From Polyangiales bacterium (GTDB lineage Bacteria; Myxococcota_A; Polyangia; Polyangiales; Ga0077539), in contig JBGARZ010000017.1 of NCBI GenBank assembly GCA_044229975.1, forward strand, positions 96,001 through 160,000: a stretch of 64,000 nucleotides of DNA, given 5' to 3'. The position numbers were made by a program, and so were the translations under genes. The notes under the pieces are model-generated. The model saw only the letters and a list, made by a program, of their open reading frames with translations, was not told where the DNA came from and searched no databases. Every line of letters begins with the position of its first letter. The first letter of the stretch is position 1. Positions 39,687-59,853 of the stretch are shown piece after piece.

Positions 39687-39764
39687 TCAGCAACCCAGCC
39701 AACTCTTTCGAGTCCCGTAGGCTTTGCGTCCCCCGCTCGCGCGAGGTTTGCCGTTATTGTGGAG
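39683..39764 (-). ncRNA. Cyclic di-GMP-I (GEMM-I) riboswitch
   Basis: Minus strand CCACAATAACGGCAAACCTCGC-GCGA-GCGGGGGACGCAAAGCCTACGGGACTCGAAAGAGTTGGCTGGGTTGCTGAATGG: GCAAACC, GNRA loop, GGGACGCAAAGCC and GGTTGC match the GEMM consensus. Confidence 0.88.
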
Positions 39765-42030: not shown

Positions 42031-42039
42031 GGGCGCCTC

Positions 42040-42465
42040 TCAGGGAAACTCCACGATGCGCCAGTAGTGATCGAGGAGCCCGATGAGCCGCATGAAGCCG
42101 GTGCCGACGTCGCTCTTCACGATGTAGCCCGCGACGTTGAAGTCGTACGAGGCCACACGATCCTCGTCGCTGCGAGACGTGGTCAGCACGAAGACCACGC
42201 TGTCCTTCAGCTCAGGGTCGGCGCGGAGCTCGGCGAGAAACTCCAGGCCGTTCATGCGGGGCATGTTGAGGTCGAGGAGGATGAGGTACGGCCGCGCGAT
42301 CGCCTCCGCTCCATCGCCTCGCAGGAGGGCCAGCGCCTCGATGCCGTCGATGGCCGTGGTGATGGGGTTGCTGATGCGCTCGCGCTTGAAGGCGCGGCGG
42401 ACGGCCTCGTGCTCGATGACGTTGTCCTCCACCAGCAGGACGCTCACGGTTCGACCTGGCATCAC
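42040..42465 (-). CDS. Rcp1-like single-domain response regulator
   Basis: LLVEDN, ILLDLNMPRMNG, FVLTTS...D...Y...VAGYIVK, YW.IVEFP. Confidence 0.9.
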   Translation of the reverse strand: MMPGRTVSVLLVEDNVIEHEAVRRAFKRERISNPITTAIDGIEALALLRGDGAEAIARPYLILLDLNMPRMNGLEFLAELRADPELKDSVVFVLTTSRSDEDRVASYDFNVAGYIVKSDVGTGFMRLIGLLDHYWRIVEFP

Positions 42466-44006
42466 CCTACCCTCACGACGCCGTCACAGCGCATGGGCCA
42501 CGTGAACACGACGGCCGTGCCACGCCCCTCGGACTCCACCCGGGCCTTCCCCCCGAAGACCTCGACGGTCTTCTTCACGATCGCGAGCCCCACGCCGCTG
42601 CCCTCCACCTGATCGCGCGGCCGCAGCGTCTGGAACATCCGGAACACCCGCTCGTGGAACTCCGGCTTGATGCCCGGGCCATCGTCCTGCACACGCACCT
42701 CGATGCGACCGTCCGTCGGCACGGCGCTCACGACGATGGTCCCCTCCGGGCGATCGTGGTGCTTGAGGGCGTTGCTGATGAGGTTGCGCAGCACCTTCTC
42801 GAAGGGCGTCCGCGGCGTGCGAAGGCTGACGTCCTCTCCGTCCAGCCGCACCGCGAAGCCCGGGGGCGGGGCGTGGAGCGCGAGGATGTTGCCGAAGACC
42901 TCGCGCAGCGTGAAGGGGTGCGCGTCGTCCACCATCCGCCCGACGCGCGAGTACTCCAGGAGGTCGTCGAGGAGCTGCTCCATCCGCTGCACGCGGTCGT
43001 TGACGAGGCGGAGGTGCTGGGCCGACGCGGGCGGGAGGGCGTCGCCGACGTCCTCGACGATCCAGCTCACCAGGTTGCGGACGTCGCGCAGCGGTGACTT
43101 GAGGTCGTGCGACGTGACGTAGGCGAAGTCGTCGAGTTCGCGGTTGGAGCGCTCGAGCTCGCGCACGTGGTGGTCGATGCGCGCGGCCATCCGGACCTTC
43201 TCGCTGACGTCGTCGAAGATGACCCCGAGGTAGTCCTCGCGGAGCGCGAAGCACTGCGCCTCGAAGGTGCGCCGGGTCTCCGGGTCGCTGCCGCGCACAT
43301 TGGTCCACGATCGCGGGACGCGGTCGCCGAGCGTCGCGGTCCAGAGGTCGACGTACTGGGGGCGGACCTCCTGGTTGAGGTCCCGCACCTGTCGCCCGAT
43401 GGCCCCGCGGAGGTCCCAGTCGCTGGAGCGCACGGCCGCGGGGTTGACCGTCACCAGTCGAAACGTCGTCGGGTCGGCCGGGTCGTCGAGGTGCCAGATC
43501 ACCATGCCGACGGAGGCGTTCTGGAAGAGGTCGACGAAGCGGGCGACCTCGGCCTCGGCCCGGCGGACCAGGTCTTCCTTCCCGGCGATGTACGCAGAGC
43601 CGAGCTCCGCCATCGCGACGTCCGTGAAGCGTTCCATCCCCCAGAGGATCCCCTCGCTCCGAGGGTCGAGGTCGTGCAGCACGCGACCACGAATCACGCC
43701 ACGGTAGGCGCCCAGCAGCCCGACCCAGTCGCGAAACTCGATGCCCATCCGCGCGTACGCGTTGCCTTGCGCCCGCAGGTGGGCGAGGTACCCGTCCCAC
43801 TCACCGTCGACCAGCGCCCGGCGCTGCTGCGCCGCGCCCATGGTGCGCTGCGCGTCGCGCATCGCCGGGGTCATCGCCGCGAAGGTCGCGGCCATCGATG
43901 GGATCTTCTCCGCCGCCGCCGCCACCGCCGCCTCGACCTCCGTGCGGGTGGCCTCCAGCGTCGCCCACAAGTCCCGCAGCGCCTCCCGTTCGTCCATCGC
44001 GGCCAT
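42462..44006 (-). CDS. Sensor histidine kinase with N-terminal globin-like domain and PAS
   Basis: Helical N-domain (YLAHLRAQGNAYARMGI.F.DW), PAS, ELERSNRELDDFAYVTSHDLKSPLR, NLISNA.KH, DDGPGI, GSGVGL. Confidence 0.9.
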   Translation of the reverse strand: MAAMDEREALRDLWATLEATRTEVEAAVAAAAEKIPSMAATFAAMTPAMRDAQRTMGAAQQRRALVDGEWDGYLAHLRAQGNAYARMGIEFRDWVGLLGAYRGVIRGRVLHDLDPRSEGILWGMERFTDVAMAELGSAYIAGKEDLVRRAEAEVARFVDLFQNASVGMVIWHLDDPADPTTFRLVTVNPAAVRSSDWDLRGAIGRQVRDLNQEVRPQYVDLWTATLGDRVPRSWTNVRGSDPETRRTFEAQCFALREDYLGVIFDDVSEKVRMAARIDHHVRELERSNRELDDFAYVTSHDLKSPLRDVRNLVSWIVEDVGDALPPASAQHLRLVNDRVQRMEQLLDDLLEYSRVGRMVDDAHPFTLREVFGNILALHAPPPGFAVRLDGEDVSLRTPRTPFEKVLRNLISNALKHHDRPEGTIVVSAVPTDGRIEVRVQDDGPGIKPEFHERVFRMFQTLRPRDQVEGSGVGLAIVKKTVEVFGGKARVESEGRGTAVVFTWPMRCDGVVRVG

Positions 44007-44062: not shown

Positions 44063-45631
44063 TTACGCCCTCGCGACGTTGTCTTCGGCGAAGGAGACGT
44101 CAAGCCCGCGCGCTCGCAGGGCAGCAACGAGCGGCGCCTTGTCCAGCGCGCGGAGGTACGACTCCGACGGGGTGATGAGCCCGGCGTCGACGAGGTCGAG
44201 CAGGGCGTCGTGGAGGGTCACCATCCCGAGGCGACGCGAGGTCTGCATCACCGTCGGGAGCTGGAAGGTCTTCCCCTCGCGGATGAGGTTGGCCACCGCG
44301 GGGATCGACAGCAGCACCTCGCGCGCCGCCACGCGCCCGCCGCCGACCTTCCTGCACAGCGTCTGCGAGATGACGCCGCGGAGCGAGCCCGCGAGCATCA
44401 CGCGGATCTGCGCCTGCTCGTCGGCGGGAAACTGGTCGATGATCCGGTCGATGGTGCTGGCCGCCGTCGAGGTGTGGAGCGTTCCGAAGACGAGGTGCCC
44501 GGTCTCCGCGGTCTCCAGCGCGATGCCCACGGTCTCCAGGTCGCGCAGCTCGCCCACCAGGATGACGTCGGGGTCTTCGCGCAGCGCGGCGCGCAGGGCG
44601 GTCTTGAAGGAGCCGGTGTGCACGCCCACCTGCCGCTGGGTGATCACGCAGCGCTTGCCCGCGTGCACGAACTCGATCGGGTCTTCGATGGTGATAACGT
44701 GGTCGTGGCGCGAGCGGTTGACCAGGTCGACGAGCGCGCAGAGCGTCGTGGACTTGCCCGACCCGGTGGGCCCGGTCACCAGCACCAGGCCCCGGCTGAG
44801 CTGACAGAGCCGCTGCACCTCCGGCGAGATGCCCATCTGCTCGACCGTCACCACGGCCGCCGGGATGTGACGAAACACCGCCGCGGGCCCGAGCCGCTCG
44901 CGCAGCGCGTTGGCGCGGAATCTCCCCGCCCCGGCGATCTCGTACGCGTAGTCGGTGTCGTTGGTCTGCGCGAACTGCCGCCGGTTTCGCTCGGGCATCA
45001 CCGAGCGGAGCATCGCCTCCAGCGCAGCGCGCTCCAGCGGCGGAGCGTCCACCCGCACCATCTCGCCGTGCAGCCGGATGATGGGGCACTGCCCGCAGCG
45101 CAGGTGGAGGTCGGAGGCGCCGCGGCGCACGAGGTCGACCAGCAGGGCGTCGAGCGCGGCCCGCGCGTGGTCGCTCCCCGCGAAGGAGTGGATGGCGTCG
45201 TCGTCGTCCGGGTCTGCCGGGAGCACGGTGTCGAGCACCTCGGGCGGCGGGACGACGGGCGCGGGCTCGATGTTGGGGTCGGGGCCGCGGAAGGCGCGGT
45301 GCTGACCGGTGAGGCGTTCGCGCTCCTTCTCCTCGTCGAGGGTGACGTGAGCGCGCCAGAGCCCGTCGTCGCGCGCGGCCAGCACGGTGAAGGCGCCGTC
45401 TTCGGAGACGTACGCGAAGTGCGCGGGCTGCCCCTCGTTGATGAGCATCGCCGCATCCGGAGGCGCGATCTCGCAAAGGAGCAAAACCACCTGCGGTCCC
45501 GTGAGGGCGGTGCGGGTGACCGGGCGGAGCGCGCCGTCGATCTCGAACTCGGCGAAGGCCCCTTCGGTCAGCCGGAGCCCGCTGGCGCGGTGGCCCTTCA
45601 TGCCCGCGAGGAGCCGGTCGAGTTGGGCCAT
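44063..45631 (-). CDS. pilT: PilT-family retraction ATPase with an extra degenerate N-domain
   Basis: GASDLHL, GPTGSGKST, TIEDPIE, ALREDPDVILVGELRD, GHLVFGTLHT, AVANLIREGK. Confidence 0.88.
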   Translation of the reverse strand: MAQLDRLLAGMKGHRASGLRLTEGAFAEFEIDGALRPVTRTALTGPQVVLLLCEIAPPDAAMLINEGQPAHFAYVSEDGAFTVLAARDDGLWRAHVTLDEEKERERLTGQHRAFRGPDPNIEPAPVVPPPEVLDTVLPADPDDDDAIHSFAGSDHARAALDALLVDLVRRGASDLHLRCGQCPIIRLHGEMVRVDAPPLERAALEAMLRSVMPERNRRQFAQTNDTDYAYEIAGAGRFRANALRERLGPAAVFRHIPAAVVTVEQMGISPEVQRLCQLSRGLVLVTGPTGSGKSTTLCALVDLVNRSRHDHVITIEDPIEFVHAGKRCVITQRQVGVHTGSFKTALRAALREDPDVILVGELRDLETVGIALETAETGHLVFGTLHTSTAASTIDRIIDQFPADEQAQIRVMLAGSLRGVISQTLCRKVGGGRVAAREVLLSIPAVANLIREGKTFQLPTVMQTSRRLGMVTLHDALLDLVDAGLITPSESYLRALDKAPLVAALRARGLDVSFAEDNVARA

Positions 45632-45638: not shown

Positions 45639-46100
45639 CTACCTCCTCGGGCGGGCGAAGGAGAGGTGCTCGCGGTTGATGACCACCACCCGGTCGCGGG
45701 TGAAGAGGGCGACGAAGCGCCGCGTCGTGTCGTTGAGGAAGTCCACGAGGCGCGGCCGGTCGGCGGGCTGCTCGGGGAAGATCGAACCGCTCCACACGCT
45801 CCCGTCGGAGAGCGTGAACTCGACGTGCATCCCGAGCACGCCGCGCTCGACGGTGTCGTCCCGCTCGGGGAGCATCGTGACGAGCGTGAAGATGTGCGAC
45901 TTCTGCACGATCACGACGTCGCCCGAGTCGAGCTCCAGCGGCAGGAACGGGGCCTCGGCGTTGAGCGCGTCGACGGGCTCCTCGGGGCCGACACGATGGC
46001 GCGTCGCGGCCTGGAGGAAGATGTCGCCCGCGAGGGAGACGCGGTGGATGAGCGTGAGGTCGACGCGGTGCCGAACCTTCTCGACCCGGTAGTCGCTCAT
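45639..46100 (-). CDS. Two-repeat small beta-barrel protein (DUF6812-like)
   Basis: ATG overlaps the upstream stop; repeats V.LTL....L.G.IF...D.LN...FLPL...VIVQKSHI and VEFTLSDGSVWSG.IF...RL.DFLN...FV.L...VVINREHL. Confidence 0.7.
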   Translation of the reverse strand: MSDYRVEKVRHRVDLTLIHRVSLAGDIFLQAATRHRVGPEEPVDALNAEAPFLPLELDSGDVVIVQKSHIFTLVTMLPERDDTVERGVLGMHVEFTLSDGSVWSGSIFPEQPADRPRLVDFLNDTTRRFVALFTRDRVVVINREHLSFARPRR

Positions 46101-47248
46101 GCGGGAGTCCTGCTGGCGCCACCCTGAGAAACGTCGGGGACGACGGTGTCCTTGAAGGCGTTGGGCAGACGCAGGAGGAAGGACGTCGGCCAGTTGGTGG
46201 TCTCCACGAGGCGGATGGTGCCGCCGTGGGCCTCCAGCGCGCGTCGGCAGAAGTAGAGGCCGAGCCCCGAGTGGCCCTCGTGCATCGGCTCTTCGCAACC
46301 GCGCGTGAACTTCTCGAAGATGCGCGCGCGGTCCTCGGGACGGATCGGCGCTCCGTCGTTGGAGACCGTGATCTCGATGCCGTCGCGCACCGCGAGGTCG
46401 ACGCCGATGCGGCCCTTGCTGGGCGTGTATCGCAGCGCGTTGTCGAGGAGGTTCTCCAGCACGCGTCGCAGCAGCGCCTTGTCGGCCTTCATCGCGACGG
46501 ACGCCGTCGGCGGTCGCAGCAGCGTGACGTTGCGGGCCTCCGCCCGGCTCTCGTACGAGGCCAGCACTTCGCGCAGGATCTTCGCCACGACCAGCACCTC
46601 GCGCCGGAGGTTCAGGCCAGGGCTCTCCAGGCGCGAGAGCGTGAGGAGGTCGCGCACCAGGTTCTGCATCCGGGCCGTGGCCGCGCGCGCGTCGCTGATG
46701 GGTCCGACCAGGTTGAACTGCGTCGGCAGCAGACCCCCGCGCACCGCCTCGATGGCGCCGGACACGACCCCGAGCGGCGCCGTGAGGTCGCGCACCAGCA
46801 GCGCCGACAGCTCGCGGTTCTCCCGCTGGGCCTCGTGCAGCGCGGCGTTGCGTCGCTTGAGCGTGTCGAGCGCCTCCTTGAGGCCGAGGAGGGCGCGCAC
46901 CCGCGCGAGCAGCACGGGCGCGTCGATGGGCTTCTCCAGGAAGTCGTCCGCGCCGGCCCGCAGCGCGCGCAGGCGGTGCTCCCGATCGGCGTGCGCCGTG
47001 ACGAGCACGACGGGGACGTGCGCCCCCGCCTCGGTCGCACGAAGGAGCTGGAGCACCTCGACGCCATCGAGGTCGGGCATCATCAGGTCGAGCAGGACGA
47101 GGTCGACGCCGCCGCGCGCCAGGACGTCCAGCGCCACGCGACCGTGGGCAGCCTGCAACAGCTCGTACCCTTCGGGCTCCAGCAGGGCCGCGAGGGCGAG
47201 GAGGTTCCTCGGCTGGTCGTCCACGAGCAGGATCCGTTTCGTCATCAC
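46097..47248 (-). CDS. REC-histidine kinase-like protein with the H-box His replaced by Arg
   Basis: LLDLMMPDLDG; LLVRDLTAPL (expected VHDL..PL); NLLDNA.RY, NDG, GLGLYFC. Confidence 0.85.
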   Translation of the reverse strand: MMTKRILLVDDQPRNLLALAALLEPEGYELLQAAHGRVALDVLARGGVDLVLLDLMMPDLDGVEVLQLLRATEAGAHVPVVLVTAHADREHRLRALRAGADDFLEKPIDAPVLLARVRALLGLKEALDTLKRRNAALHEAQRENRELSALLVRDLTAPLGVVSGAIEAVRGGLLPTQFNLVGPISDARAATARMQNLVRDLLTLSRLESPGLNLRREVLVVAKILREVLASYESRAEARNVTLLRPPTASVAMKADKALLRRVLENLLDNALRYTPSKGRIGVDLAVRDGIEITVSNDGAPIRPEDRARIFEKFTRGCEEPMHEGHSGLGLYFCRRALEAHGGTIRLVETTNWPTSFLLRLPNAFKDTVVPDVSQGGASRTPA

Positions 47249-47255
47249 CCACCTC

Positions 47256-49541
47256 TCACGCGCTGCACACCGCGAGCACCTGTCGCAGGTCGGTGAGACC
47301 CGCGAGGCACTTCTCGACGCCGTCCTGCAACAGCGTCGTCATGCCCGACGCCATCGCCACCTCGCGGAGCTCGTCCACCGGCGCCGATCGCGCGATGAGC
47401 CGCTTCAACCCAGGGTCGGTCACCATCAGCTCGTGCAGCGCGATGCGGCCCTTGTAGCCGGTGTTGGCGCACGCCGCGCACCCCGGCGCCCGCCACAGCG
47501 TAAGGGGTTCGCCGTTGAGCCTCGCCGCGAGGGCCTCCTCTCCCAGCGCCAGGGCGACCTCGGCGCGCGCGTCGGGCGGGGCGGCGTAGCTCTGTCGGCA
47601 CACCTTGCAGAGCCCGCGGGCGAGGCGCTGCGCGAGCACGCCGACGAGCGCATCGGCGAAGCTGAAGGGGTCGAGCCCCATGTCGATGAGCCGCACCACG
47701 GTCTCCGGCGCGCTGTTGGTGTGGAGCGTCGAGAGCACGAGGTGGCCCGTGAGCGACGCCTCCACCGCGGTGCCGGCGGTCTCCTCGTCGCGCATCTCAC
47801 CGACCATGATGACGTCCGGGTCGCCGCGCAGAAACGCCCGCATCGCCGCCGCGAAGGTCAGCCCCGCGCGGACGTTGACCTGCATCTGCCGCAGGCCCGC
47901 CTGGGTGATCTCCACCGGGTCCTCGGCGGTCCAGATCTTCATGTCGGGCGTGTTGATGGCGCCGAGCATGGAGTGCAGCGTCGTGGTCTTGCCCGACCCG
48001 GTGGGCCCGACGCACAGGATGAGCCCGTAGGGCCGCGCCAGGATGCGCGCGACCTCGCGGTGGTTGCGCGGCGAGAGCCCCATCTGCGCCAGGGGCAGCG
48101 GCTTCGACGAGGCGAGGATGCGCAGCACGGCGTCCTCGTCGCCGCGCGACGTCGGGAAGGTCGCGACGCGCAGCTCGACGGGCTGCCCCGAGAGCCGCAG
48201 CCGGATCTTCCCGTCCTGCGGCTTGCGCCGCTCGGCGATGTCGAGCCCGGCGAGGATCTTCATGCGGGCCACCAGCGCGCGCCGGCTCGCGGGCGGCAGC
48301 TCCCGGTACACGACGCAGTCGCCGTCGACGCGGAAGCGCACGATGGTGTTGTCCTCCGCGCCGTTGGGCTCGATGTGGATGTCCGACGCGCCGCGGCGAT
48401 AGGCGTCGCTGAAGATGCGGTGCACCAGGCGCACGATGACGTTGTCGGCCACCTCCGGCGTCTCGGCCCCGCTCGCGGATTCATCCTCCTCGGGCGGGAG
48501 CGCGCCGAGCTCGCGCAGGATCTGCTCGAAGTCCTCCTGCGGCGGTGGTGGCGTGGGTGGCGTCGAGGCTTCGGCCTTCGGCGGAGGGGCGGGCCTCGCG
48601 ATGTGGGCGTCGACGTAGCGGGCGAGCTGCGAGGGCGCGACGATCACCTCGCGCACCCGACGCCCGATGCGAAACTCCAACAGGTTGCGGTTTTCGGGCG
48701 CCATGGGCTCGCGGCTGGCGAGCGTGAGGCTGCGCGCGTCGAAGTCCGTCGGCAGCACGCCGTAGCGCTGGATGAGCTCCTGCGGCACGGCGGTGGCCGC
48801 CGCGGGGTCGAGGGTGATGGCGTCGAGGTCGACGAAGGGCAGACGGAACTTCGCCGCCAGCGCCTGCGCGAGCTGCACCTCGGTGATGAGGTCCATCCCA
48901 CGCATGACTTCTCCGAGTCGCAGTCCCTCCTCGGGCGGCGGCGCGGGCGTCGCCGGTGGGGCCGTGCTCACCGTCGTGCGCCGCACGAGCGAGCGGTGCC
49001 GCAGCTCCGTCTGCTGGGCGAGCGCGCGGTCGATGTTCTCGCGGCTGACGACACCCATGGAGAGCAGGATGGCGCCGAGCTGCTCCAGGCGTTCGAAGCC
49101 GAGGACGTTGTCGCGCAGGAAGAACAGCTCGCGAAGATCGCTGTCGGCCTCCAGCGGATACGCCACCATCCTCCGCGCGTTGGCGTCGGCGCCCGTCGGC
49201 ACGCGCACGTCGAGGTGGCGCTCGCGCGAGACGTGGACGCGCAGCGGTTCGAGCGGCGTGTCGATGGGGGCCGGGACGCTCTCGCCGGGTCGTCGACTGA
49301 AGCCCACGTAGACGACGCGCTCGGCGGGCACGAGCATCCGCCGCGCGAAGGCGTCGACCTCGCCCTCGGTGGAGCCCAGCCACATCACGAACTCCGTCGC
49401 GTCGGCGCGGAAGCCCGTGAGCATGCCGTGGAGGGTGCGCCCGTCGGTGAGCCCCAACACGGCGGGTACGCCGAGCCCCTGCGGACCCGGGCTGATGCCC
49501 CAGGCACCGGGTGTCGTGCCGACGGCCCGCGGGTTCTTCAC
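47256..49541 (-). CDS. PilB/GspE-family ATPase 1 (N-terminal beta-barrel repeats + MshEN)
   Basis: GASDIHIEP, LDIAERRKPQDGKI, GPTGSGKTTTL, EDPVEI, DPDVIMVGEMRD, CKVC...CAAC; GTG start at 49541 inferred. Confidence 0.88.
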   Translation of the reverse strand: MKNPRAVGTTPGAWGISPGPQGLGVPAVLGLTDGRTLHGMLTGFRADATEFVMWLGSTEGEVDAFARRMLVPAERVVYVGFSRRPGESVPAPIDTPLEPLRVHVSRERHLDVRVPTGADANARRMVAYPLEADSDLRELFFLRDNVLGFERLEQLGAILLSMGVVSRENIDRALAQQTELRHRSLVRRTTVSTAPPATPAPPPEEGLRLGEVMRGMDLITEVQLAQALAAKFRLPFVDLDAITLDPAAATAVPQELIQRYGVLPTDFDARSLTLASREPMAPENRNLLEFRIGRRVREVIVAPSQLARYVDAHIARPAPPPKAEASTPPTPPPPQEDFEQILRELGALPPEEDESASGAETPEVADNVIVRLVHRIFSDAYRRGASDIHIEPNGAEDNTIVRFRVDGDCVVYRELPPASRRALVARMKILAGLDIAERRKPQDGKIRLRLSGQPVELRVATFPTSRGDEDAVLRILASSKPLPLAQMGLSPRNHREVARILARPYGLILCVGPTGSGKTTTLHSMLGAINTPDMKIWTAEDPVEITQAGLRQMQVNVRAGLTFAAAMRAFLRGDPDVIMVGEMRDEETAGTAVEASLTGHLVLSTLHTNSAPETVVRLIDMGLDPFSFADALVGVLAQRLARGLCKVCRQSYAAPPDARAEVALALGEEALAARLNGEPLTLWRAPGCAACANTGYKGRIALHELMVTDPGLKRLIARSAPVDELREVAMASGMTTLLQDGVEKCLAGLTDLRQVLAVCSA

Positions 49542-49560
49542 CGTGGGCTTCGGGGAGTCG

Positions 49561-51096
49561 TCAGCGTGAGGGCGGGGCGAGCTCACCGGGGAGATCCTCT
49601 CCGTCCGTCTGTGGCCCGACGGGGGGTGCCGAAAGCGGCGACGACGCCGCGGTGTCACGCGCCCACAACGCCGCGAGGGGCGCGCCGCCGACCATCGTCC
49701 AGTGCCGGACGCGCCGCCAGCCCACGAGCGCCCAGCGACCGTTGGTGACGCGGTACACACGCCTTCCCTCGGGGATGGTTTCCTCCATCGAGCCGCCCAG
49801 GACGCACCCGTCGCGCGAGGCCGCGAACACGAAGCGCAGCGGCTCGAAGACGGGGTCGCTCCACACGACCACCGGGCGCGTGCAGCCCGCGTCGGCGAGG
49901 ATCGCGTCACGGACCAATGACGGCACCGCCATCCGTTCGCGCGGCACCTGCGGCCCCAGGAAGCGGCCACCCGGTGCGTCCTCGCGCAGCGCAACGGCGC
50001 CGGTGCTCCCTTGCAGGAAGTGCGAGGCGAGCGCCGCGGTGACCGCCAACGCCAGCGCCGCGGAGCCCACCAGCGCCCGCTCGGGGCGCGTCTTCGCCCA
50101 GGCCGCGCACCACATCGCCCACGGCGCGACGAGCACGAAGCCCCAACGGTCGGCGCCCGGCGCGGCGAGCAGCGGCAGCGCCACCGTCGCCACCGCGAGC
50201 TGGAGCCCGGCGAAGCGACCCATCTCGTCGTGCAGCACGCGACGCGCGCTCAACGCCACGAGGAGGAGCAGCACGCAGCTCGCGAGGGCCTCGACCCACG
50301 AGCGAACGCCCGCGAAGTGCGCCAGCGTCGAGACCCCGCTCAGCGAGTCCATGACTCGATGGAGCCCCCCACCGACGCCCGCTCTCGATGCGTGCGTCGA
50401 CGCGGGCAGGAGCCTCACCGCCAGCGCGCCATGCAACACCCCCAGACCGACGGCCACCCAGGTCGAGGGCCACTGGAAGAGCGGACGCCTCGACGGCAGC
50501 AGCACCCACAGCACGCACGCCACCGCCGGGATCGCCGCGAGCGGCGAGAAGTGCAGGCCCAGCGCGACGCACTGCGCGGCGAGCACGAGCGCAGGCGGTG
50601 ACCGACGCCGCACGGCGTACCACCACGCGACCGGCCCGAGCGCCGCGAGCCCCAGCGAGATCGCGGAGTGATGGTCCCCCGTGCGCGACCACGCGACGCT
50701 CCACGGGTGCAGGAGCAGCACGGCCACGAAGATGAGCGCGGGGCGCCGACGTAGGAGCAGCGTGGCGGACGCGGTCAGCGCGAGGAGCGCCAGCACCATC
50801 ACCAGCCGCGCCGACATGAACGAGGGCCCGAACATCGCGAAAGCTACCGTCGTGAGTGCCCGCGCCGCTGCGATGCCGGGGCCATGGGACGTCGGGCCGT
50901 GGGCGCCGGCGATCACCCGCAACGGCAGGTCGCCCTCCGCGCCCCAGGGGTTGGGAATCGCGCCCAGCCAGGGAAGGCGCAGCGCGAGACCCGCGGCGAG
51001 GAGGGCCGCGAGCGCGAGCGAGGGCGAAGGGCGATCGGGCCCGACGTAGGTGTCCTCCGGGCCGGACGTGAGTCGGCGGATCAGGACGGCGAGCAC
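49561..51096 (-). CDS. Multi-pass membrane protein, ArnT/PMT-like glycosyltransferase fold
   Basis: LALRL.WL....W..EG, FGPSFMSARL, HPWSVAWSR pattern of GT-C enzymes; start uncertain. Confidence 0.55.
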   Translation of the reverse strand: MLAVLIRRLTSGPEDTYVGPDRPSPSLALAALLAAGLALRLPWLGAIPNPWGAEGDLPLRVIAGAHGPTSHGPGIAAARALTTVAFAMFGPSFMSARLVMVLALLALTASATLLLRRRPALIFVAVLLLHPWSVAWSRTGDHHSAISLGLAALGPVAWWYAVRRRSPPALVLAAQCVALGLHFSPLAAIPAVACVLWVLLPSRRPLFQWPSTWVAVGLGVLHGALAVRLLPASTHASRAGVGGGLHRVMDSLSGVSTLAHFAGVRSWVEALASCVLLLLVALSARRVLHDEMGRFAGLQLAVATVALPLLAAPGADRWGFVLVAPWAMWCAAWAKTRPERALVGSAALALAVTAALASHFLQGSTGAVALREDAPGGRFLGPQVPRERMAVPSLVRDAILADAGCTRPVVVWSDPVFEPLRFVFAASRDGCVLGGSMEETIPEGRRVYRVTNGRWALVGWRRVRHWTMVGGAPLAALWARDTAASSPLSAPPVGPQTDGEDLPGELAPPSR

Positions 51097-51131
51097 CCCG
51101 GAGCCGGGTCGCTCGGGAACCGCCTGCGGAC

Positions 51132-52541
51132 TCACTTCAACACCATCGCGACGACGGCCGCGCCGACCACGACGAGGGTCAGGACGAACCCAACCCACGG
51201 ACCGCGCGCCCAGGCGAACGCGGGCGGTTCGGTGGGGGCCGGGATGAAGTCCAAGCGCTGCCGACGATGCGGGACATGGACGTTCGGAGGCGGAGCCACG
51301 GACGGAGGTCGCTGCCTGGGTACGAGCTCGGTGCCGATCTCGGGATCGCTGACGGGCGCAGCGACCTGCGACTTCGCGGGGAGCGGTCGCGTCGGGACAC
51401 GATCGTCGTCGTCCGTCACCTCGACTGCGGGTGCGGCTGCGGGCGCAGCCTCCACGGGTTGTGGCAACGCATCCGGCGCCGGAGCGCTGGGGACGATGGC
51501 GTGCAGCTCGAAGGGCTCGGCCGTGACACCACGACGCGACGCCTGACGCTCGCGACGGGCGCCCAGCTTCTCCTCGACGTCGTGGAGAAACTCGTCCGGC
51601 AGGATGTCGTTGATGCCCTCGAAGGCGCTGGGCCGCGGCATGAATCCGAGGGCGAGCTCGGGCGTGACGTTCTTCCAGATCGCGCACCCGGCGAGCGCCG
51701 CGCGAAACTCCGCCATGGTGCGGTAGCGCTTGTTGAGCTCGCGCTCGAGCGCGCGATGCACCACCGCTTCGAGGTCGGCGGCGACGTCGGGGAGGTGATC
51801 TCGGAGCGGCGTCGGGCGACCGTAGATGATCTGCGCCATCACGGCGTTGGGGTTGCTCGCGCCGAAGGGGAGCGTGCCGCAGAGCATCTCGTAGAGCATC
51901 GTGCCGACGCTCCAGATGTCGGTGCGCGCGTCGATGGAGCTGTCACCCAGCGCCTGCTCGGGGGACATGTACCAGGGCGTCCCGAAGACCATGCCCGTCG
52001 CCGTGCGCTCGTTGCGGTCGAGCGCGTCGATGACCTTGGCGATGCCGAAATCGATCGCCTTCGGCACCACGACCCCGTCGTCGGTCTCGTGCAGGAAGAC
52101 GTTCTCCGGCTTGATGTCACGATGCACGATGCCGACGGCGTGCGCGGCGACGAGCGCGTCCATCACCGGGAGCGCCACCGCGATGGTCGACAGCGACGAG
52201 AGGCTCCCGAGCTCGTTGAGGCAGCCCGAGATGTCGGCGCCCCGCAGCAGCTCCTGCACGATGAAGCGCGTGCGCAGCCGCTCGTCGTTGCCGAAGCCGT
52301 GAACGCCCACGATGTTGGGGTGCCCGATGCGCGACGCGGCCTGCGCCTCGCGCTCGAAGCGCTTCACCAGATCCTCCCGATCGTAGAGGTCCTCGCGCAG
52401 GGTCTTGAGGGCGACCACGTCCCCGGTCTCCGCGTCCTCGACCCGGTACACCGCGCCCATGCCGCCCTGGCCCAGCACGCCGCATACGCGGTAGCGCCGG
52501 GCGACCATCGTTCCCTCTGCCAAGAGCGTCGGTTCAGCCAT
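51132..52541 (-). CDS. Ser/Thr protein kinase with C-terminal TM
   Basis: LGQGGMGAVY, VALK, HPNIV, HRDIKPEN, DFGIAK, GTPWYMSPEQ, DIWS.G. Confidence 0.95.
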   Translation of the reverse strand: MAEPTLLAEGTMVARRYRVCGVLGQGGMGAVYRVEDAETGDVVALKTLREDLYDREDLVKRFEREAQAASRIGHPNIVGVHGFGNDERLRTRFIVQELLRGADISGCLNELGSLSSLSTIAVALPVMDALVAAHAVGIVHRDIKPENVFLHETDDGVVVPKAIDFGIAKVIDALDRNERTATGMVFGTPWYMSPEQALGDSSIDARTDIWSVGTMLYEMLCGTLPFGASNPNAVMAQIIYGRPTPLRDHLPDVAADLEAVVHRALERELNKRYRTMAEFRAALAGCAIWKNVTPELALGFMPRPSAFEGINDILPDEFLHDVEEKLGARRERQASRRGVTAEPFELHAIVPSAPAPDALPQPVEAAPAAAPAVEVTDDDDRVPTRPLPAKSQVAAPVSDPEIGTELVPRQRPPSVAPPPNVHVPHRRQRLDFIPAPTEPPAFAWARGPWVGFVLTLVVVGAAVVAMVLK

Positions 52542-52550
52542 CGATGGAGC

Positions 52551-54878
52551 TCACGTCAGTGGACCTTCGCCGCGACCGCAGACCGCGGACACCTGGCGCA
52601 GGTCGGTCTTGCCATCGAGGGCCTTCTCGATGCCGTCCTGGAGGAGCGTCGTCATGCCCGAGGCCCTCGCGATCGCGCGCAGCTCGGTGATGTTGGCCCG
52701 ACGCTGGATCGCGCGCCGAAGGTCGTCGTTGACCACGAGAAACTCGTGGAGCCCCACGCGTCCCTTGTAGCCAGTCTTCCCGCACGCGTCGCACCCCGTC
52801 GCGCGGCAGAGCGTCGCCGAGCGGTCGTCGCGCAGCCGCTGGATCTTCGGGTGGGTGCCTCCGTACATCCGTTCGATCTCGTCGACCTCCGCGCGCGCGG
52901 GGCGGTAGTGGTCGACGCACTTGGGGCACATCCCGCGGGCGAGGCGCTGGGCCAGCACGCCGCAGAGCGCGTCACCAAACGTGAAGGGCTCGACGCCCAT
53001 GTCGATGAGCCGGGTGATGGTCTCCGGCGCGCTGTTGGTGTGCAGCGTCGAGAACACCAGGTGACCCGTGAGCGACGCTTCCACCGCGATGCCGGCCGTC
53101 TCCGGGTCGCGCATCTCGCCCACCATGATGACGTCCGGGTCGGCGCGCAGAAACGAGCGCAGCGCCGCCGCGAAGGTGAACCCGATGCGGGGCTGCACCT
53201 GCACCTGTCGCAGGCCCGCCTGGGTGATCTCCACCGGGTCCTCGGCGGTCCAGATCTTCATGTCGGGCGTGTTGATGGCGCCGAGCATGGAGTGCAGCGT
53301 CGTGGTCTTGCCCGACCCGGTCGGTCCCACGCACAGGATCAACCCGTGCGGCTGGGCGATGGCCCCGCGCACCTCCTTCAGGTTGCGCTCGCTGAAGCCC
53401 ACCCGGTCGATGGGCATCGGTCGGGACGACGCCAGCACGCGCATCACCACGTCCTCGTTGCCGTTGACCGTGGGGATGGAGGCCACGCGCAGCTCCACCA
53501 TCTTGTCGTGGAAGCGGAAGCGGATCTTCCCGTCCTGCGGCTTGCGGCGCTCGGCGATGTCGAGGTTCGCCATCACCTTCACGCGCGCCACCAGCGCCGA
53601 GCGCACCGACGCTGGAAACTCCTGGTACGCCTCGCACTCGCCGTCGACGCGGAAGCGCACCACCACGTCGCGCTCGTCGCCGTAGGGCTCGATGTGGATG
53701 TCCGACGCGCCCTTGCGGCACGCGTCGGCGATCACCTGGTTGACCAGCTTGATGACGGCGCTGTCCTGCGCGTCGAGGTCTTCGCCCGCGCCGACCGCCT
53801 CCACCGCGCTCCGCTGCGACTCGGCCGCGAGCTGCGCCAGGATCTTCTTGAACTCCCCTTCTCCCTTGTCGATGTTGCCGAGGGCCGCGTCGACGAAGCG
53901 CTTCAACTGCGTCGGGGTCGCGAGCACCTCGCTCACCCGGCGCTTGAGGTGCACGCGCACGAAGTCGATGCCGTCGGTGTTGAGCGGGTCCGCCACCGCG
54001 AGCGTCACCACCCGGTCGGTCAGGGCGATGGGGAGCACCAGGTGCTTCTCGATCACCTCGCGCGGAATCGAGCGCACCGCCTCGGGCTCGATGGTCACCT
54101 GGTCGAGGTCGACGAAGGGCATCGAGAACTTCTCGGCCAGCGTCAGCGCCAGGTCGGCCTCGGTGATGATCCCCATCCCCACCAGCACGTCGCCGAGCTT
54201 GCGCCCCATGCGTCGCTTCTGCTCGTCGAGCCCCGCCTGGATGTCCGCCGCGGTCGCGAGCCCCGCCTCCACCAGCACCTCGCCGATGCGCATGCGCTTG
54301 CGCGCCTGGAGCTCGACGGCCTGCGCCACCGCCTCTGCGGTGACGCGCTTCTGCTCGACGAGGATCTGCCCGAGCGGCGCCGCCCTCTGCGCCGCCTGCG
54401 CCTGGAGTCCGCGCGCCAGAGGCTCCGGCCCGATCACCCCCTTCCGCATCATCATCGCGCCGATGGGCTCGACCAGCTCCCGGGCCGTGACCCCGTGGTG
54501 ATAGAACCAGAACTCGCGGAAGGGGCTCTCCTCCTCGGTGCTCGCGGCGAAGAACCCCAGCGGGTGCTGGAGCGCCGCCACGTCGACCTTCACCGCGAGC
54601 TTTCGCCCGCCCACGGCATGGACGCGGAGCAGCCGGTTGGCCGTCGGCAGCGTGCGCGGCGGGTGGCCGTCACCGCGGTGAAACCCGACCCACGCGACCC
54701 GCTCGGCCGCGACCATCTTCACCGACCCTTCGATCGTCCGCTCGCTCAGCTCGATGCGATGGTCGCTCGCGTTGGGCACGAAGGCCGACAGCCGCCCCAC
54801 CCACTGCTCGCCCGTCACCGTCACCACGGTGACCGTCGTCCCCGCCTTCACCGCGTCCACTGCTCGATCCATCGCCAT
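52551..54878 (-). CDS. PilB/GspE-family ATPase 2 (N-terminal beta-barrel repeats + four MshEN-type motifs)
   Basis: RIGEVLVEAGL, KLGDVLVGMGII, GASDIHIEP, GPTGSGKTTTL, CPKC...CDAC. Confidence 0.9.
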   Translation of the reverse strand: MAMDRAVDAVKAGTTVTVVTVTGEQWVGRLSAFVPNASDHRIELSERTIEGSVKMVAAERVAWVGFHRGDGHPPRTLPTANRLLRVHAVGGRKLAVKVDVAALQHPLGFFAASTEEESPFREFWFYHHGVTARELVEPIGAMMMRKGVIGPEPLARGLQAQAAQRAAPLGQILVEQKRVTAEAVAQAVELQARKRMRIGEVLVEAGLATAADIQAGLDEQKRRMGRKLGDVLVGMGIITEADLALTLAEKFSMPFVDLDQVTIEPEAVRSIPREVIEKHLVLPIALTDRVVTLAVADPLNTDGIDFVRVHLKRRVSEVLATPTQLKRFVDAALGNIDKGEGEFKKILAQLAAESQRSAVEAVGAGEDLDAQDSAVIKLVNQVIADACRKGASDIHIEPYGDERDVVVRFRVDGECEAYQEFPASVRSALVARVKVMANLDIAERRKPQDGKIRFRFHDKMVELRVASIPTVNGNEDVVMRVLASSRPMPIDRVGFSERNLKEVRGAIAQPHGLILCVGPTGSGKTTTLHSMLGAINTPDMKIWTAEDPVEITQAGLRQVQVQPRIGFTFAAALRSFLRADPDVIMVGEMRDPETAGIAVEASLTGHLVFSTLHTNSAPETITRLIDMGVEPFTFGDALCGVLAQRLARGMCPKCVDHYRPARAEVDEIERMYGGTHPKIQRLRDDRSATLCRATGCDACGKTGYKGRVGLHEFLVVNDDLRRAIQRRANITELRAIARASGMTTLLQDGIEKALDGKTDLRQVSAVCGRGEGPLT

Positions 54879-54890: not shown

Positions 54891-55822
54891 TCAAGGTTGC
54901 GCCGCGAAGACCCGGTTTCGCCCGTTGTGTTTGGCCTGGTAGAGCGCCCAGTCCGCCGCGGCCACGAGGGGGTCGCCGTCGTTCTGTCCCGGCAGCATCG
55001 TCGCGACGCCGACGCTCACGGAGACCCACGGAGCGGCCGCGCCTCCACCGTGTGGCAGCCGCAGCGCCTGCACCGCCTCGCGGAAGCGCTCCGCCCGCGC
55101 GAGCGCCGCCGCCGAGCCGTGCCCCGGCAGAATCAGCGCGAACTCCTCGCCTCCGTACCGCGCCGCGACCTCGCCCGCGCCGCTCCGCTGTGCGCCCAGC
55201 AGCGACGCCACGGTGCGCAGGCACTCGTCGCCCGCCTGGTGCCCGCGGGTGTCGTTGAAGGCCTTGAAGTGGTCGACGTCGATCATCAGCAGCGACAGCG
55301 GCGCGTCGGCGAAGGTCGCGTCGCGAGCCAGGCGCCGGAGCGACTCGTCGAAGCACCGCCGGTTGGAGAGACCCGTGAGCCCGTCCTGCTGGCTCAGCCG
55401 CGCGAGCTCCTCGTTGGCGTCCGCGAGGCGCGCCGTCAGCTCGCTCATGCGCCGGCGCATGTCGTCGATGCGCTGCATCGCGCGGATCTTGGCGTGCAGC
55501 ACCACGAAGCTCACCGGCTTCACGAGGTAGTCGTCGCCGCCCGCGTCGATGCCCTTCTCCAGGTCGAGGTCGGCCTCCGCGGCGGACAGGAAGATGATGG
55601 GCGTCCAGCCGTCGGGCTCCAGCGCGCGGATGCGCCGCGCCGTCGCGTACCCGTCCATCACGGGCATGATCGCGTCCATCAGCACGAGGTCGGGCTTCTC
55701 CTGGCGCCAGAGCGCGAGGCCCTTCTCGCCGTCCTCGGCCTCCAGCACCTGGTGGCCCATCCGCGCGATCATCGCCGCGAGCTTGGCCCGCACGACCCTC
55801 TGGTCCTCCACCACCACGATCT

Positions 55823-55826
<4 letters not shown>
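54891..55826 (-). CDS. REC-GGDEF diguanylate cyclase
   Basis: GTG overlaps the upstream stop; MDAIMPVMDG; DGLTGL.NRR, DVDHFK.FND..GH.AGD, RYGGEEF. Confidence 0.92.
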
Positions 55827-58585
<2,759 letters not shown>

Positions 58586-58598
58586 CCCGATGGCTCCC

Positions 58599-58643
58599 TC
58601 AGGCCTCGCCCACGAAGGTGACCGTCATCTGTCGGGTCTTCAT
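58599..58643 (-). pseudogene. Scar of an internally deleted FIST/NosP-like gene (14 codons)
   Basis: ATG..TGA mini-ORF MKTRQ-MTVTFVGEA; resembles the first and last residues of FIST proteins (..HNQTMTVT...E); 13 bp upstream of the kinase. Confidence 0.55.
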
Positions 58644-58671
58644 GGCCATCGACCGGTCCGTGAGGTGTTGG

Positions 58672-59853
58672 TCAGACGAGGGCCGCGGGCGCGGGGGGCG
58701 CCGCCGCCTCGACGCGGTTGCGACCCGCGCGCTTGGCCCGGTAGAGGGCGCGATCGGCGGACTCGACGAGCGAGTCGACCGAGGCCGCGCCGTCCCAGCT
58801 CGCGAGGCCGAAGCTGGCGGTGACCGCGATGACGCGGCCGCCCGAGTCCACCGGGCGCGCGGCGATCGCGACACGAAGGCGCTCGGCGACGCTCGTCCCC
58901 TTGACGAGGTCGCACCCGGGCAGGACGACCACGAACTCCTCGCCTCCGTAGCGAGCGACGAGGTCGTACGGGCGCAGGGTGGTCTGGAGACGCTCGACCA
59001 CGGCGCGGAGCACCGCGTCGCCCCCGGGGTGGCCGTAGGTGTCGTTGATCTGCTTGAAGTGATCGAGGTCGAGGAGCAGCAGCGAGACGCGCGTGCCTTC
59101 GCGCCGTGAGCGCACCAGCTCGCGCTCCAGGACACGGACGCCTTCGCCCCGGTTGAGCGCGCCGGTGAGCGGGTCGTAGAGGGCGAGGCGTCGCAGCACC
59201 TCGCGGGAGCGATGGAGCTGCCGCGCACGCCGTTCGAGCCGGCACGAGTTCTTCAGGGCGTTGAGGAAGTCCCGGTGAAACTGGGCTCCCTGGAGCCACA
59301 GGAAGACGACGTAGAAGATGAGCGTGAGGGCGAGGCCGGTGGAGAACTGGTCGGGGTGATAGAGCGTGGCCGTCGCGAGGATGGGGCCGACCAGCGCGAC
59401 GGTGTACGCGCGGAGCACCGTCGGCACGGGCGCGCAGCTGTTGACGGTGGCGGAGAGGACGCCCGCCGTCACGACGAGCACGAGGGTGGTCTGGGCGCCG
59501 AGGCCGTTGACGACGAGGCACGCCGCCGCCATCAGCCCCCAGTGAAAGCCCGCGAGCACCGTCACGAGCCCGAACTGCCGGAGCCACCGGCGGGAGCGAC
59601 TCCGGGCCTCCTGGCCGACGACCCGCGCGAGGTGCCAGTTCCACCCGACGAAGAGGAGCCGCACGGCGATGGCCGCGAGCGCGAAGGCCGGGTGCGCGAC
59701 GACCGTCGACGTGACCACCAGCATGAACACCACGAGGGCCGCGCTCGACAACGACGTGAGCCGCGCGCGCCGCGCGAGCGTCGTCTCGATCTGGGAGCGT
59801 AGCGGCAACGGTGGCAACGGTGTCGGTAGCGGGGCGTACTCCTCTACGGTCAC
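58672..59853 (-). CDS. Membrane-bound diguanylate cyclase
   Basis: About 6 TMs; DPLTGALNR, DLDHFK.INDTYGH..GD, RPYD I-site, RYGGEEF. Confidence 0.92.
   Translation of the reverse strand: MTVEEYAPLPTPLPPLPLRSQIETTLARRARLTSLSSAALVVFMLVVTSTVVAHPAFALAAIAVRLLFVGWNWHLARVVGQEARSRSRRWLRQFGLVTVLAGFHWGLMAAACLVVNGLGAQTTLVLVVTAGVLSATVNSCAPVPTVLRAYTVALVGPILATATLYHPDQFSTGLALTLIFYVVFLWLQGAQFHRDFLNALKNSCRLERRARQLHRSREVLRRLALYDPLTGALNRGEGVRVLERELVRSRREGTRVSLLLLDLDHFKQINDTYGHPGGDAVLRAVVERLQTTLRPYDLVARYGGEEFVVVLPGCDLVKGTSVAERLRVAIAARPVDSGGRVIAVTASFGLASWDGAASVDSLVESADRALYRAKRAGRNRVEAAAPPAPAALV

Follow-up and report, generated by a model that had tools for sequence, protein, structure and literature searches.

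Gene organisation of the locus

The window, i.e. the whole stretch of 64,000 nucleotides that was analysed, contains the genes of two PilB/GspE-family ATPases (PilB1 and PilB2), a PilT-like ATPase and a free 153-aa protein; their positions and those of the neighbouring genes are presented in Table 1. The PilT-like gene begins 7 nt downstream of the free gene. The start of PilB1 is probably the GTG at 49541, and the real start of the membrane protein probably lies further downstream. PilB1 consists of a DUF6982-like tandem, a partial MshE motif, MshEN, an ATPase with its motifs intact and two CxxC, and PilB2 of a DUF6982-like tandem, MshE c-di-GMP motifs, MshEN and an intact ATPase. The genes around the PilB and free-gene locus include signalling genes. 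The promoter and terminator scan of the locus gave nothing beyond shuffled sequences. No pilus-machine family was found at E 1e-12 beside the fused PilBs (32 flanking genes, 16 loci) or in 32 other window genes, a scan which covered 32/63 flanking and 32/47 window called genes.

Table 1. Features of the region, numbered from the first nucleotide of the window
Feature	Position	Strand	Basis or remark
PilT-like accessory ATPase, 522 aa	44063..45631	-	TIGR01420, motifs, tree
Additional domain at the N-terminus of the PilT-like protein, copy of the protein's N2D (first core) domain	45332..45631	-	hhalign
Free 153-aa protein, DUF6812	45639..46100	-	Pfam PF20660, model, structure search, gene order
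REC-HisKA-HATPase hybrid kinase, flanked by PilB1 and the free gene	46097..47248	-	4-nt overlap with the start of the free gene
PilB1, orphan PilB/GspE-family ATPase, 761 aa (probable GTG start)	47256..49541	-	
PilB1 N-terminal tandem Sm-like (DUF6982-like) domain, predicted	49086..49481	-	Homology to the PilB2 domain
Membrane protein, weak PMT_2 glycosyltransferase match	49561..51687	-	PF13231 E 3.6e-4, below cut-off
Ser/Thr protein kinase, immediately past PilB2	51132..52541	-	PF00069 E 1.5e-44
PilB2, orphan PilB/GspE-family ATPase, 775 aa	52551..54878	-	
PilB2 best MshE-type c-di-GMP-binding motif, residues 197-249, predicted	54132..54290	-	NF053729
PilB2 N-terminal tandem Sm-like (DUF6982-like) domain, residues 11-137, predicted	54468..54848	-	Model, structure and profile searches
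REC-GGDEF diguanylate cyclase, GGEEF motif intact	54891..55826	-	Ends 12 nt ahead of PilB2, same strand

The ATPases

Both PilB1 and PilB2 contain MshEN, Walker A, the Asp box, Walker B, the His box and the tetracysteine of the PilB/GspE family. Based on TIGR02538 (canonical T4aP PilB), the PilB-like ATPases of the window score 540 and 482 bits, below 675.65; the canonical pilB-pilT pair is found on contig C32 and the window PilBs form part of a separate clade. As orphan paralogues, the window ATPases are encoded away from the canonical pilB-pilT locus. The PilT-like protein scores 445 bits with TIGR01420 (against 319.1), its Walker A, Asp box, Walker B and His box are intact and it has no tetracysteine; its extra N-terminal domain aligns with its own N2D domain at an hhalign probability of 96.6 (E 6.6e-10). 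Concerning the MshE motif (NF053729, cut-off 38), PilB2 scores 83.4 bits in two matching stretches, and PilB1 remains below the cut-off with 33.5 bits.

Sequence families of the N-terminal domain and the free protein

The motifs quoted in a preliminary description of the locus are all present on the minus strand: AVLGLTDGRTLHGMLTGF starts at residue 27 of PilB1 and VTVVTVTGEQWVGRLSAF at residue 16 of PilB2, while the pair quoted for the 153-aa ORF falls in two different repeats: VIVQKSHIFTL closes repeat 1, whose successor, repeat 2, opens with VEFTLSDGSVWSGSIF. As judged by sequence, the N-terminal domains of PilB1 and PilB2 (~125 aa) are homologous above chance, with a local score of 103 against 29 +/- 5 for shuffled sequences (0/500 as high). 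The two repeats per domain proposed earlier are supported by the predicted models, at ~55-65 aa each with a 13-15-aa linker, and the repeat-versus-repeat scores are marginal at best (4% of shuffles as high for the best pair, repeats 1 and 2 of the free protein).

The anticipated family matches were also recovered, DUF6812 for the free protein and, distantly, DUF6982 for the PilB domain. The free protein is a member of DUF6812 (PF20660: E 1.6e-8, 34.8 bits, cut-off 27.1) and matches DUF6812 clusters in the ESM Atlas at 0.94-0.95. The PilB domains of the window have no direct match to DUF6982 (PF22478), but 3/20 of their homologues do (best E 5e-7), and with the PilB-domain profile bona fide DUF6982 proteins are recovered (E 3e-8 to 3e-5; P0205 was left out of this set), as is one stand-alone DUF6982 (E 1.2e-7). 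The ESM Atlas matches of the PilB domain reach only 0.79-0.80 and are a lead at best. These profile matches suggest that the PilB N-terminal domain is a distant DUF6982.

Pairwise comparison of the free protein with the PilB domains detected no similarity (33-41% of shuffles as high), and hhalign between the two families gave probabilities of 4.9 and 14.6 only. The PilB-domain HMM scores more than 5 bits with 33/46 DUF6812 sequences and more than 10 bits with 10/46, the maximum for reversed sequences being 2.6 bits. The free and the PilB-fused domains are two separate families which share one predicted fold and a weak cross-profile link. Among 7994 scored candidates, none had a DUF6812 tandem fused to an ATPase in a longer protein, which is weak evidence.

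In paralogues of the same genome, GAF-like or cNMP-like N-termini (assigned by eye) occupy the slot of the tandem, and the GAF-bearing paralogue belongs to the same clade as the window PilBs (support 98/100). The fused tandem may by this token be a small-ligand or second-messenger sensor, interchangeable with GAF and cNMP inputs, with the free protein acting likewise for PilT; the signalling genes which surround the locus are in keeping with this, as are the altered ATPases among the full-length fusions. Of 28 such fusions, 9 do not pass a strict test of their Walker motifs, and the 5 of these that were inspected have clear alterations but retain the tandem and MshEN. However, the 64-row alignment of the PilB domain has no invariant column, its four near-invariant ones being Gly/Phe, which look structural and unlike a ligand pocket, and PilB2 already has a c-di-GMP module. 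We consider a sensor of this type unlikely.

Predicted fold

Two five-strand barrels are found in the model of the free protein (pLDDT 84.5, pTM 0.80; predicted residues 8-76 and 91-151) and in that of the PilB2 domain (residues 11-137; pLDDT 92.3, pTM 0.86). Hfq, Sm/LSm-family or YaeO/Rof entries make up 41/50 and 38/50 of the structural matches listed (titles read by eye), with both repeats covered. Hfq superposes with an rmsd of 1.2-2.5 A across 46-55 residues (Z 3.9-5.2), and among the matches listed the PilB domain scores highest with YaeO/Rof of V. cholerae (Z 5.4; identity 8-10%). All Z values are at most 5.4, in a tool for which Z < 8 may mean just a common arrangement, and the C-terminal barrel of BirA and Kustd1711 tie with the Sm matches. 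In Foldseek neither model had a match at E 0.001; the Hfq/LSm/YaeO rows were found at probabilities of 0.94-1.00. A tandem Tudor fold came first by Foldseek E-value and was rejected, as its rmsd exceeds 10 A. The PilB-domain profile gave Sm/LSm in 7/7 weak matches against PDB, and in a wider set Sm/LSm/Hfq in 27/33 (best E 0.025, repeat 1 only); the DUF6812 profile had 0 matches to PDB sequences at E 10. Both tandems are predicted to have the Sm/Hfq topology of five-strand bent beta-barrels, and the Sm-like fold proposed earlier for every repeat is supported, as a prediction, by the models, the structural neighbours and the PilB-domain profile. A helix before strand 1 is absent in the full-length model of the free protein; the PilB2 model begins at residue 11.

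The low Z values, the BirA and Kustd1711 ties and the leading Tudor rows would also suit generic SH3-type barrels without Sm ancestry, with the PilB domain as a structural add-on and a free gene that is only co-regulated with pilT; so would the weak hhalign result between the two families. The poor superposition of Tudor against the high Foldseek probabilities of Hfq/LSm/YaeO argues otherwise, the sequence profiles independently pick Sm/Hfq, and the near-zero gaps between the free gene and its ATPase (see below) persist in divergent lineages of PilT and PilB. We regard this reading as improbable.

Pairing of the free gene with a PilT-type ATPase

A PilT-like gene lies directly downstream of the free gene in 76/77 loci, the 77th locus ending ~100 nt past the gene, and the gap is -1 to 6 nt in 70/76. 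In Gemmatimonadota a PilT/PilB-type ATPase follows the free gene in all 30 examined loci. Within the order of the studied genome an ATPase follows in 26/30 loci (20 PilT-like, 6 PilB-like), and the other 4 copies, one of them in this very genome, have no adjoining ATPase. As the majority of the 77 and 30 loci are related to one another, the counts exaggerate the number of independent cases. The genome itself has a second, divergent free-gene/PilT pair at C32:946204-948217, and 6 of its 8 PilT-like genes have no such neighbour. The free gene is operonic with PilT, and its genomic partner is the PilT-like gene and not PilB; the pair is tight across two phyla. The unrooted tree hints at a possible horizontal transfer of the pair from Gemmatimonadota. 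A complex prediction for the free protein and full-length PilT (46-row alignments each) reached 0.26 against a mark of 0.32, with controls not folded, and speaks neither for nor against binding.

Distribution of free and fused forms

The search of the genomes with PF20660 missed even the free gene of the window, and alignment profiles were therefore used. Among 121 Gemmatimonadota genomes, the free gene is present in 45, and no PilB fusion was found. Across 201 genomes, 7/19 fusion-bearing genomes also have a free-gene match, and beyond the genus of the studied genome just 2/13 do; the seven weakest genomes of the fusion set (E > 1e-3) were dropped as wrong-frame noise, and L193 was dropped as well. 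The MshEN region follows next in frame in 22/23 true fusion loci, and in the tree the tandem-bearing ATPases fall into at least two distinct groups. The carriers observed are mostly metagenome-assembled genomes. The recurring tie between an Sm-like barrel and a pilus-type ATPase, suspected from the outset, is borne out by these data. The free protein had also been proposed to serve the PilB-fused domain as an adaptor or to compete with it. Such a role is unsupported because the gene of the free protein is operonic with PilT and also occurs in genomes in which the search for a fusion found none; the overlap is limited to the 7/19 genomes above.

DUF6982 ends long Pro/Ala-rich proteins, or fragments of such, in 17/36 proteins scanned. 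The stand-alone DUF6982 genes had an ATPase within 1.5 kb in 0/9 loci, and none was found in 20 kb around L048; DUF6982 is accordingly not pilus-specific. These Pro/Ala-rich proteins, together with the local linkage of the two families within the genus, would allow Sm-to-Sm docking, in which the PilT-borne free protein pairs edge strands with DUF6982 on PilBs or on Pro-rich scaffolds and so couples or places the motors. The two families co-occur poorly, however, and the studied genome has no PF22478 match other than the profile-detected fusions, which makes such docking very unlikely in our view.

Features bearing on RNA binding

In the 64-row alignment of the PilB-fused domain, the position of the Sm2 Arg is mostly Pro or Ala (P31, A17, R4) and that of the Sm2 Gly is A25, T11, V10; judging from these residues, the fused domain is without the Sm2 Arg-Gly. 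The DUF6812 sequences are all net negative (46/46, -2 to -9). Their invariant basic residues (R5, K8, R34, K67, R117) could bind nucleic acid, and K67 probably falls at the Lys position of the Sm2 RNA-binding motif of Hfq (YKH).

According to the preliminary description, the PilB hexamer is capped by an Hfq-like ring of the fused barrels, which may bind RNA and into which the free protein inserts or with which it competes. Several observations agree with this: the predicted fold is Sm-like in all repeats, the free and fused families share a weak cross-profile similarity, Hfq has no match in the genome (93% complete), and a PilB1-type gene adjoins the free-PilT pair in the window and lies tail-to-tail with it in 4/77 loci, all myxobacterial. 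An RNA-binding ring cap is nevertheless unlikely, given the acidic character of the free family and the absence of the Sm2 Arg-Gly from the fused domain. Moreover, ~230 residues (MshE motifs, MshEN and linker) separate the tandem from the PilB ATPase core, and a hexamer would carry 12 barrels. The missing N-terminal helix in the free-protein model, the Gemmatimonadota genomes with the free gene and no fusion found, and the 2/13 overlap outside the genus further count against the arrangement, to which we assign a very low probability.

Comparison with known systems

In the available text of PMC12288463, cyanobacterial Hfq binds the C-terminal extension of PilB, and its action at the pilus base is described as unknown. 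The parallel drawn earlier with this system holds only as an analogy: in the Hfq-PilB(-EbsA) system, too, a Sm-fold protein which is thought unlikely to bind RNA is tied to a pilus motor ATPase (PMC12288463). It does not extend to the arrangement, as the barrels studied here are tandem, belong to two other families and are either fused N-terminally to non-canonical, orphan PilBs or paired with an accessory PilT. Rof/YaeO is a Sm-like protein which binds the N-terminal domains of hexameric Rho and controls its ring state, as stated in the available part of PMC11018626. It resembles the PilB domain in structure, as noted above, and differs from both tandems in being a single barrel with an N-terminal helix for binding and a transcription factor as target (PMC11018626); the resemblance is one of predicted structure.

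The available text of the review PMC11656802 describes PilZ, FimX and CpiA as small cofactors of PilB which act at its N-terminal domains; 'Hfq' does not occur in it. The target of these cofactors is PilB; the free protein pairs mainly with PilT. The MshEN-bearing PilB, MshE and PilF likewise have c-di-GMP motifs ahead of the ATPase (PMC11656802), but the window PilBs have an extra Sm-like tandem before the MshE motifs. M. xanthus likewise has a number of accessory PilT-like ATPases with partial roles in motility, and in some of these the N- or C-terminus is long; the available part of PMC13584747 mentions no small upstream cofactor. Neither DUF6982 nor DUF6812 is named in the text of the papers searched, and no description of tandem Sm-like modules regulating accessory pilus-type motors was found in them.

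Proposed role

The domains are likely protein-binding motor regulators because one form is fused to PilB and the free gene immediately precedes a PilT-type ATPase gene in the majority of genomes that carry it. That the doubled Sm/Hfq-type barrels, fused or free, are protein-binding regulatory modules of accessory pilus-type ATPases and not RNA chaperones is the reading we favour, with about even confidence that it is right. The free DUF6812 protein would be made together with the PilT paralogue and bound in trans as a stoichiometric cofactor, most likely at the N-terminal domains of PilT, where it might set the ring state, localisation or pilus-base access of the motor, by analogy with Rof on hexameric Rho. 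The DUF6982-like tandem could have a comparable function in cis in the PilB paralogues, or else provide their docking site for a partner. In PilB2, c-di-GMP from the adjacent cyclase may bind the MshE motifs just behind the tandem and gate the domain. The free and fused domains, two separate families, would serve different ATPase partners.

A broader proposal, which we regard as tentative and rather doubtful, is that tandem Sm-fold subunits dedicated to pilus-type motors make up a widespread class not described before: the free form would be the first small cofactor known to be dedicated to PilT paralogues (Gemmatimonadota, Myxococcota), the fused form would be found in c-di-GMP-gated PilB paralogues and pseudo-ATPases, and the barrels might possibly form Sm-type rings which also contact RNA. 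If this is true, the cyanobacterial Hfq-PilB system is one case of a general, repeatedly evolved control of motors by Sm barrels. For two domains of unknown function, a fold is now predicted and a specific partner proposed that can be tested, and the two-gene unit of the free protein and PilT offers an easy in-vitro system for Sm-barrel control of a pilus-type ATPase. The free gene is kept in about a third of the sampled Gemmatimonadota genomes (45/121) and in myxobacteria.

Organisation of the locus

The window lies on contig C17 of the genome G000 (10.0 Mb, 93% complete, ~71% GC). Based on the distances from PilB1 to the hybrid kinase, the free 153-aa gene and the PilT-like gene (7, -4 and 7 nt), these four genes probably form one transcript. 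A scan of 32 other window genes gave no match to a pilus-machine family. A dense signalling cluster surrounds the ATPases (37705-44006 and 54891-62888), with several REC proteins and histidine kinases, two GGDEF proteins and a REC-EAL protein.

Genes of the ATPase locus and their positions in the window
Gene	Position	Strand	Remarks
REC-GGDEF gene	54891-55826	minus	ends 12 nt before PilB2
PilB2	52551-54878	minus	PilB-like ATPase
Ser/Thr kinase gene		minus	between PilB2 and PMT-like gene
PMT-like membrane protein gene		minus	between Ser/Thr kinase and PilB1
PilB1	47256-49541	minus	PilB-like ATPase
Hybrid kinase	46097-47248	minus	between PilB1 and free gene
Free 153-aa gene	45639-46100	minus	DUF6812
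PilT-like gene	44063-45631	minus	directly 3' of free gene

Domain families

The sequence motifs quoted in the preliminary description are all present, and its expectation of DUF6982 and DUF6812 was right: profile comparisons place the N-terminal domain of the PilB proteins as a distant DUF6982 and the free protein in DUF6812. The Pfam family DUF6982 is matched by 3/20 homologues of the PilB domain, and a search with the PilB-domain profile brings up one DUF6982 protein that stands alone and 17 with DUF6982 at the end. The preliminary reading also presupposes that the three domains are related to one another. This stands for PilB1 and PilB2, whose N-termini are homologous by alignment (score 103, shuffles 29 +/- 5). 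Between the free protein and the PilB N-termini no pairwise similarity was found, and hhalign gives the two families a probability of 4.9 and 14.6. A weak link remains through the PilB-domain HMM, which scores above 5 bits on 33 of 46 DUF6812 sequences (reversed sequences reach at most 2.6 bits); the reverse direction gives 5/64.

Predicted fold and RNA binding

Both models, predicted with good confidence, consist of two five-strand repeats (free protein: pLDDT 84.5, pTM 0.80; PilB2 domain: pLDDT 92.3, pTM 0.86). By title, their structure neighbours are mostly Hfq, LSm/Sm and YaeO/Rof (38/50 and 41/50 of the rows listed), covering both repeats in both proteins, with the caveat that the PDB is rich in Sm entries. 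Foldseek gives no match at E 0.001 for either model, and its probability for the Hfq, LSm and YaeO rows is 0.94-1.00. Because the best Z scores (5.3 and 5.4) are tied by the BirA C-terminal barrel and Kustd1711, structure by itself indicates a small barrel of SH3 type that most resembles Sm. A generic barrel with no functional tie to the ATPases is compatible with these ties and is at odds with the gene pairing described below; we consider it improbable. Independently of the models, the PilB-domain profile, searched against the PDB, finds Sm-type entries (Sm/LSm in 7/7 and Sm/LSm/Hfq in 27/33 weak matches; best E 0.025), in matches that run through repeat 1; the free-protein profile has no PDB match at all. 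The Sm-like fold claimed in the preliminary description is likely for both proteins as a predicted fold, and the case for true Sm homology is stronger for the PilB domain than for the free protein.

Concerning RNA, the 'RG' position of Sm2 is 'PA' when the PilB domain is aligned to an Sm protein, and across 64 PilB-domain sequences the Arg position is P in 31, A in 17 and R in 4. All 46 DUF6812 sequences have a negative net charge and the PilB domains are near neutral. R5, K8, R34, K67 and R117 are invariant in the free family, which counts on the other side; K67 probably corresponds to the Lys in the YKH motif of Hfq. A search of G000 (93% complete) revealed no Hfq. RNA binding by these barrels is doubtful on these residues and charges, and the idea of an RNA-binding ring capping PilB is probably wrong; we hold such a ring very unlikely.

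The free gene and its genomic partner, PilT

The PilT-like protein of the window carries an extra N-domain that duplicates its own N2D. A PilT-like gene encoding this N-domain lies directly 3' of the free gene in 76/77 related loci, at a gap of -1 to 6 nt in 70/76; the core is visible in 68 and the sequence stops earlier in 8. The 77th locus stops ~100 nt past the free gene. Sampling was widened because the 77 loci are mostly from related Gemmatimonadaceae and not independent. Among Gemmatimonadota, 45/121 genomes contain the free gene, with PilT next in 30/30 loci examined; in the genomes checked, this PilT comes on top of a canonical pilB-pilT pair and, judged by eye, lies among housekeeping genes resembling surA, pdxA, hemolysin/CBS and typA. 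In the order of G000, the free gene is found in 23/201 genomes; the 30 loci, which include the window itself and a few repeats from the 77-locus set, continue with a PilT-like gene (20), a PilB-like gene (6) or neither (4). Two of the six PilB-like followers, read whole, have a cNMP-type N-terminus and one is seemingly truncated. In one genus (L178:5977-8539 and L180:4052-6608), the gene that follows the DUF6812 tandem encodes a PilB-like ATPase with a cNMP domain, not PilT.

The genomic partner of the free protein is therefore PilT, and its proposed role as adaptor or competitor of the PilB-fused domain is probably wrong. Docking of one Sm-like barrel onto the other is likewise a reading we hold very unlikely. 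The converse of the pairing fails: 6/8 PilT-like genes of G000 have no neighbour of the free-gene type. A second pair (G000:C32:946204-948217, plus strand) consists of a highly divergent DUF6812-type tandem gene and, after a gap of 1 nt, another PilT paralogue, which is extended at its N-terminus; further members of the genus and family share this pair. An orphan copy (L001:8680-9177, on contig C13 of G000; 60% identical) is flanked by a TetR-like and an M28 peptidase-like gene and has no ATPase in its vicinity. The nearest named relatives of the free gene carry the labels Myxococcaceae, Myxococcales or Deltaproteobacteria, which makes G000 probably a myxobacterium. In the ATPase tree, the window PilT-like protein nests among Gemmatimonadota sequences (98/93), which hints that the pair may have been transferred into the genus.

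Distribution of the fusions

The fusion is patchy, being present in 19/201 genomes of the order (after removal of 7 noise matches). Fusion-domain matches occur in 17/301 genomes of the phylum, with Walker A in the same frame in 13/15 new loci. No domain-ATPase fusion was found in 121 Gemmatimonadota genomes, using a profile of limited sensitivity on incomplete genomes; of the 7 matches, 6 are short proteins of DUF6982 type that stand alone and 1 is noise. The occurrence of the free protein does not follow that of the fusion: within the order it is matched in 7/19 fusion-bearing genomes, and in 2/13 outside the genus of G000. A PilB1-type gene lies tail-to-tail with the free gene-PilT pair in 4/77 loci, a local link that is real but narrow. 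In two related genomes (L140, L141), the fused PilB gene is found among the lipid A genes lpxK and kdtA/DUF374.

The ATPases

PilB1 and PilB2 are both below the TIGR02538 cut-off, and the canonical pilB-pilT pair and a GspE-like gene of G000 are on other contigs; the PilB-like ATPases of the window are accessory and orphan. G000 contains 15 PilB/GspE/PilT-family genes (contigs C10, C11, C26, C32, C35 and C38), among them fusions with cNMP-like and with GAF-like domains, a HEAT-repeat-like PilT and one protein in which the PilT domain occurs twice. A tree was built from 45 ATPase cores, after exclusion of 10 rows that lacked an exact Walker A match. In it, PilB1 and PilB2 fall in an 18-row clade (98/100) with the GAF-type ATPase of G000, and 7 other fusions form a separate group (99/70); the domain is therefore fused to two ATPase groups or more.

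All three ATPases of the window have intact catalytic motifs. The MshE-type c-di-GMP motifs are above the cut-off in PilB2 and partial in PilB1, and GGDEF genes directly flank 2/16 other fusion loci. The strict Walker test is failed by 9/28 full-length fusions; the 5 of these that were read have clearly altered motifs but retain both the tandem and MshEN, suggesting a role in signalling or as a scaffold. P0138, P0163, P0176, P0179 and P0200 are DUF6982-MshEN-PilB fusions in which Walker A, the Asp box or Walker B is altered and the CxxC pairs are kept; they are probably pseudo-ATPases that serve as receptors for c-di-GMP or as scaffolds. Barrels sensing a ligand would also fit a retained tandem, MshEN being kept beside it; we regard this as improbable.

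Possible function and related systems

Starting from the observed gene anatomy, families, gene pairing and orphan ATPases, we give an even chance to the following reading: the barrels would be protein-binding modules at the N-terminal side of accessory hexameric motors, the free protein acting in trans on PilT and the fused tandem in cis on PilB, with c-di-GMP gating PilB2. Such a system would work like several known ones: cyanobacterial Hfq binds a C-terminal extension of PilB and is thought an unlikely RNA binder (PMC12288463); Rof, which is Sm-like, sits between the N-terminal domains of hexameric Rho and keeps it open (PMC11018626); PMC11656802 reviews the cofactors of PilB and its regulation through MshEN; and the PilT paralogues of M. 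xanthus contribute in part to motility (PMC13584747). The system does not belong to canonical PilB and probably not to the Hfq RNA chaperones. Searches of the literature, with most subscription papers outside their scope, found no mention of DUF6812 or DUF6982, no work since 2022 joining Hfq, PilB, AlphaFold and hexamer, and, outside cyanobacteria, no paper on Sm-like domains that are fused to pilus ATPases or paired with them. The arrangement is real and apparently undescribed, a fresh variation on the way in which Sm-fold proteins are known to control ring ATPases.

Other proteins with the PilB-type domain

Among the best 150 of 215 PilB-domain profile matches, 44 contain the ATPase, a further 31 extend as far as the MshEN region, and the remaining 75 have neither; these last are mostly fragments, plus DUF6982-ending proteins. 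P0250, P0262, P0265, P0273, P0278 and their relatives are long and Pro/Ala-rich (up to 1215 aa), with a short conserved helical segment at the start and DUF6982 at the C-terminal end; they are possible scaffold or polarity proteins. P0245, P0258 and P0264 (284-358 aa) combine a DUF6982-like tandem with, seemingly, only the N2D part of a GspE-type ATPase.
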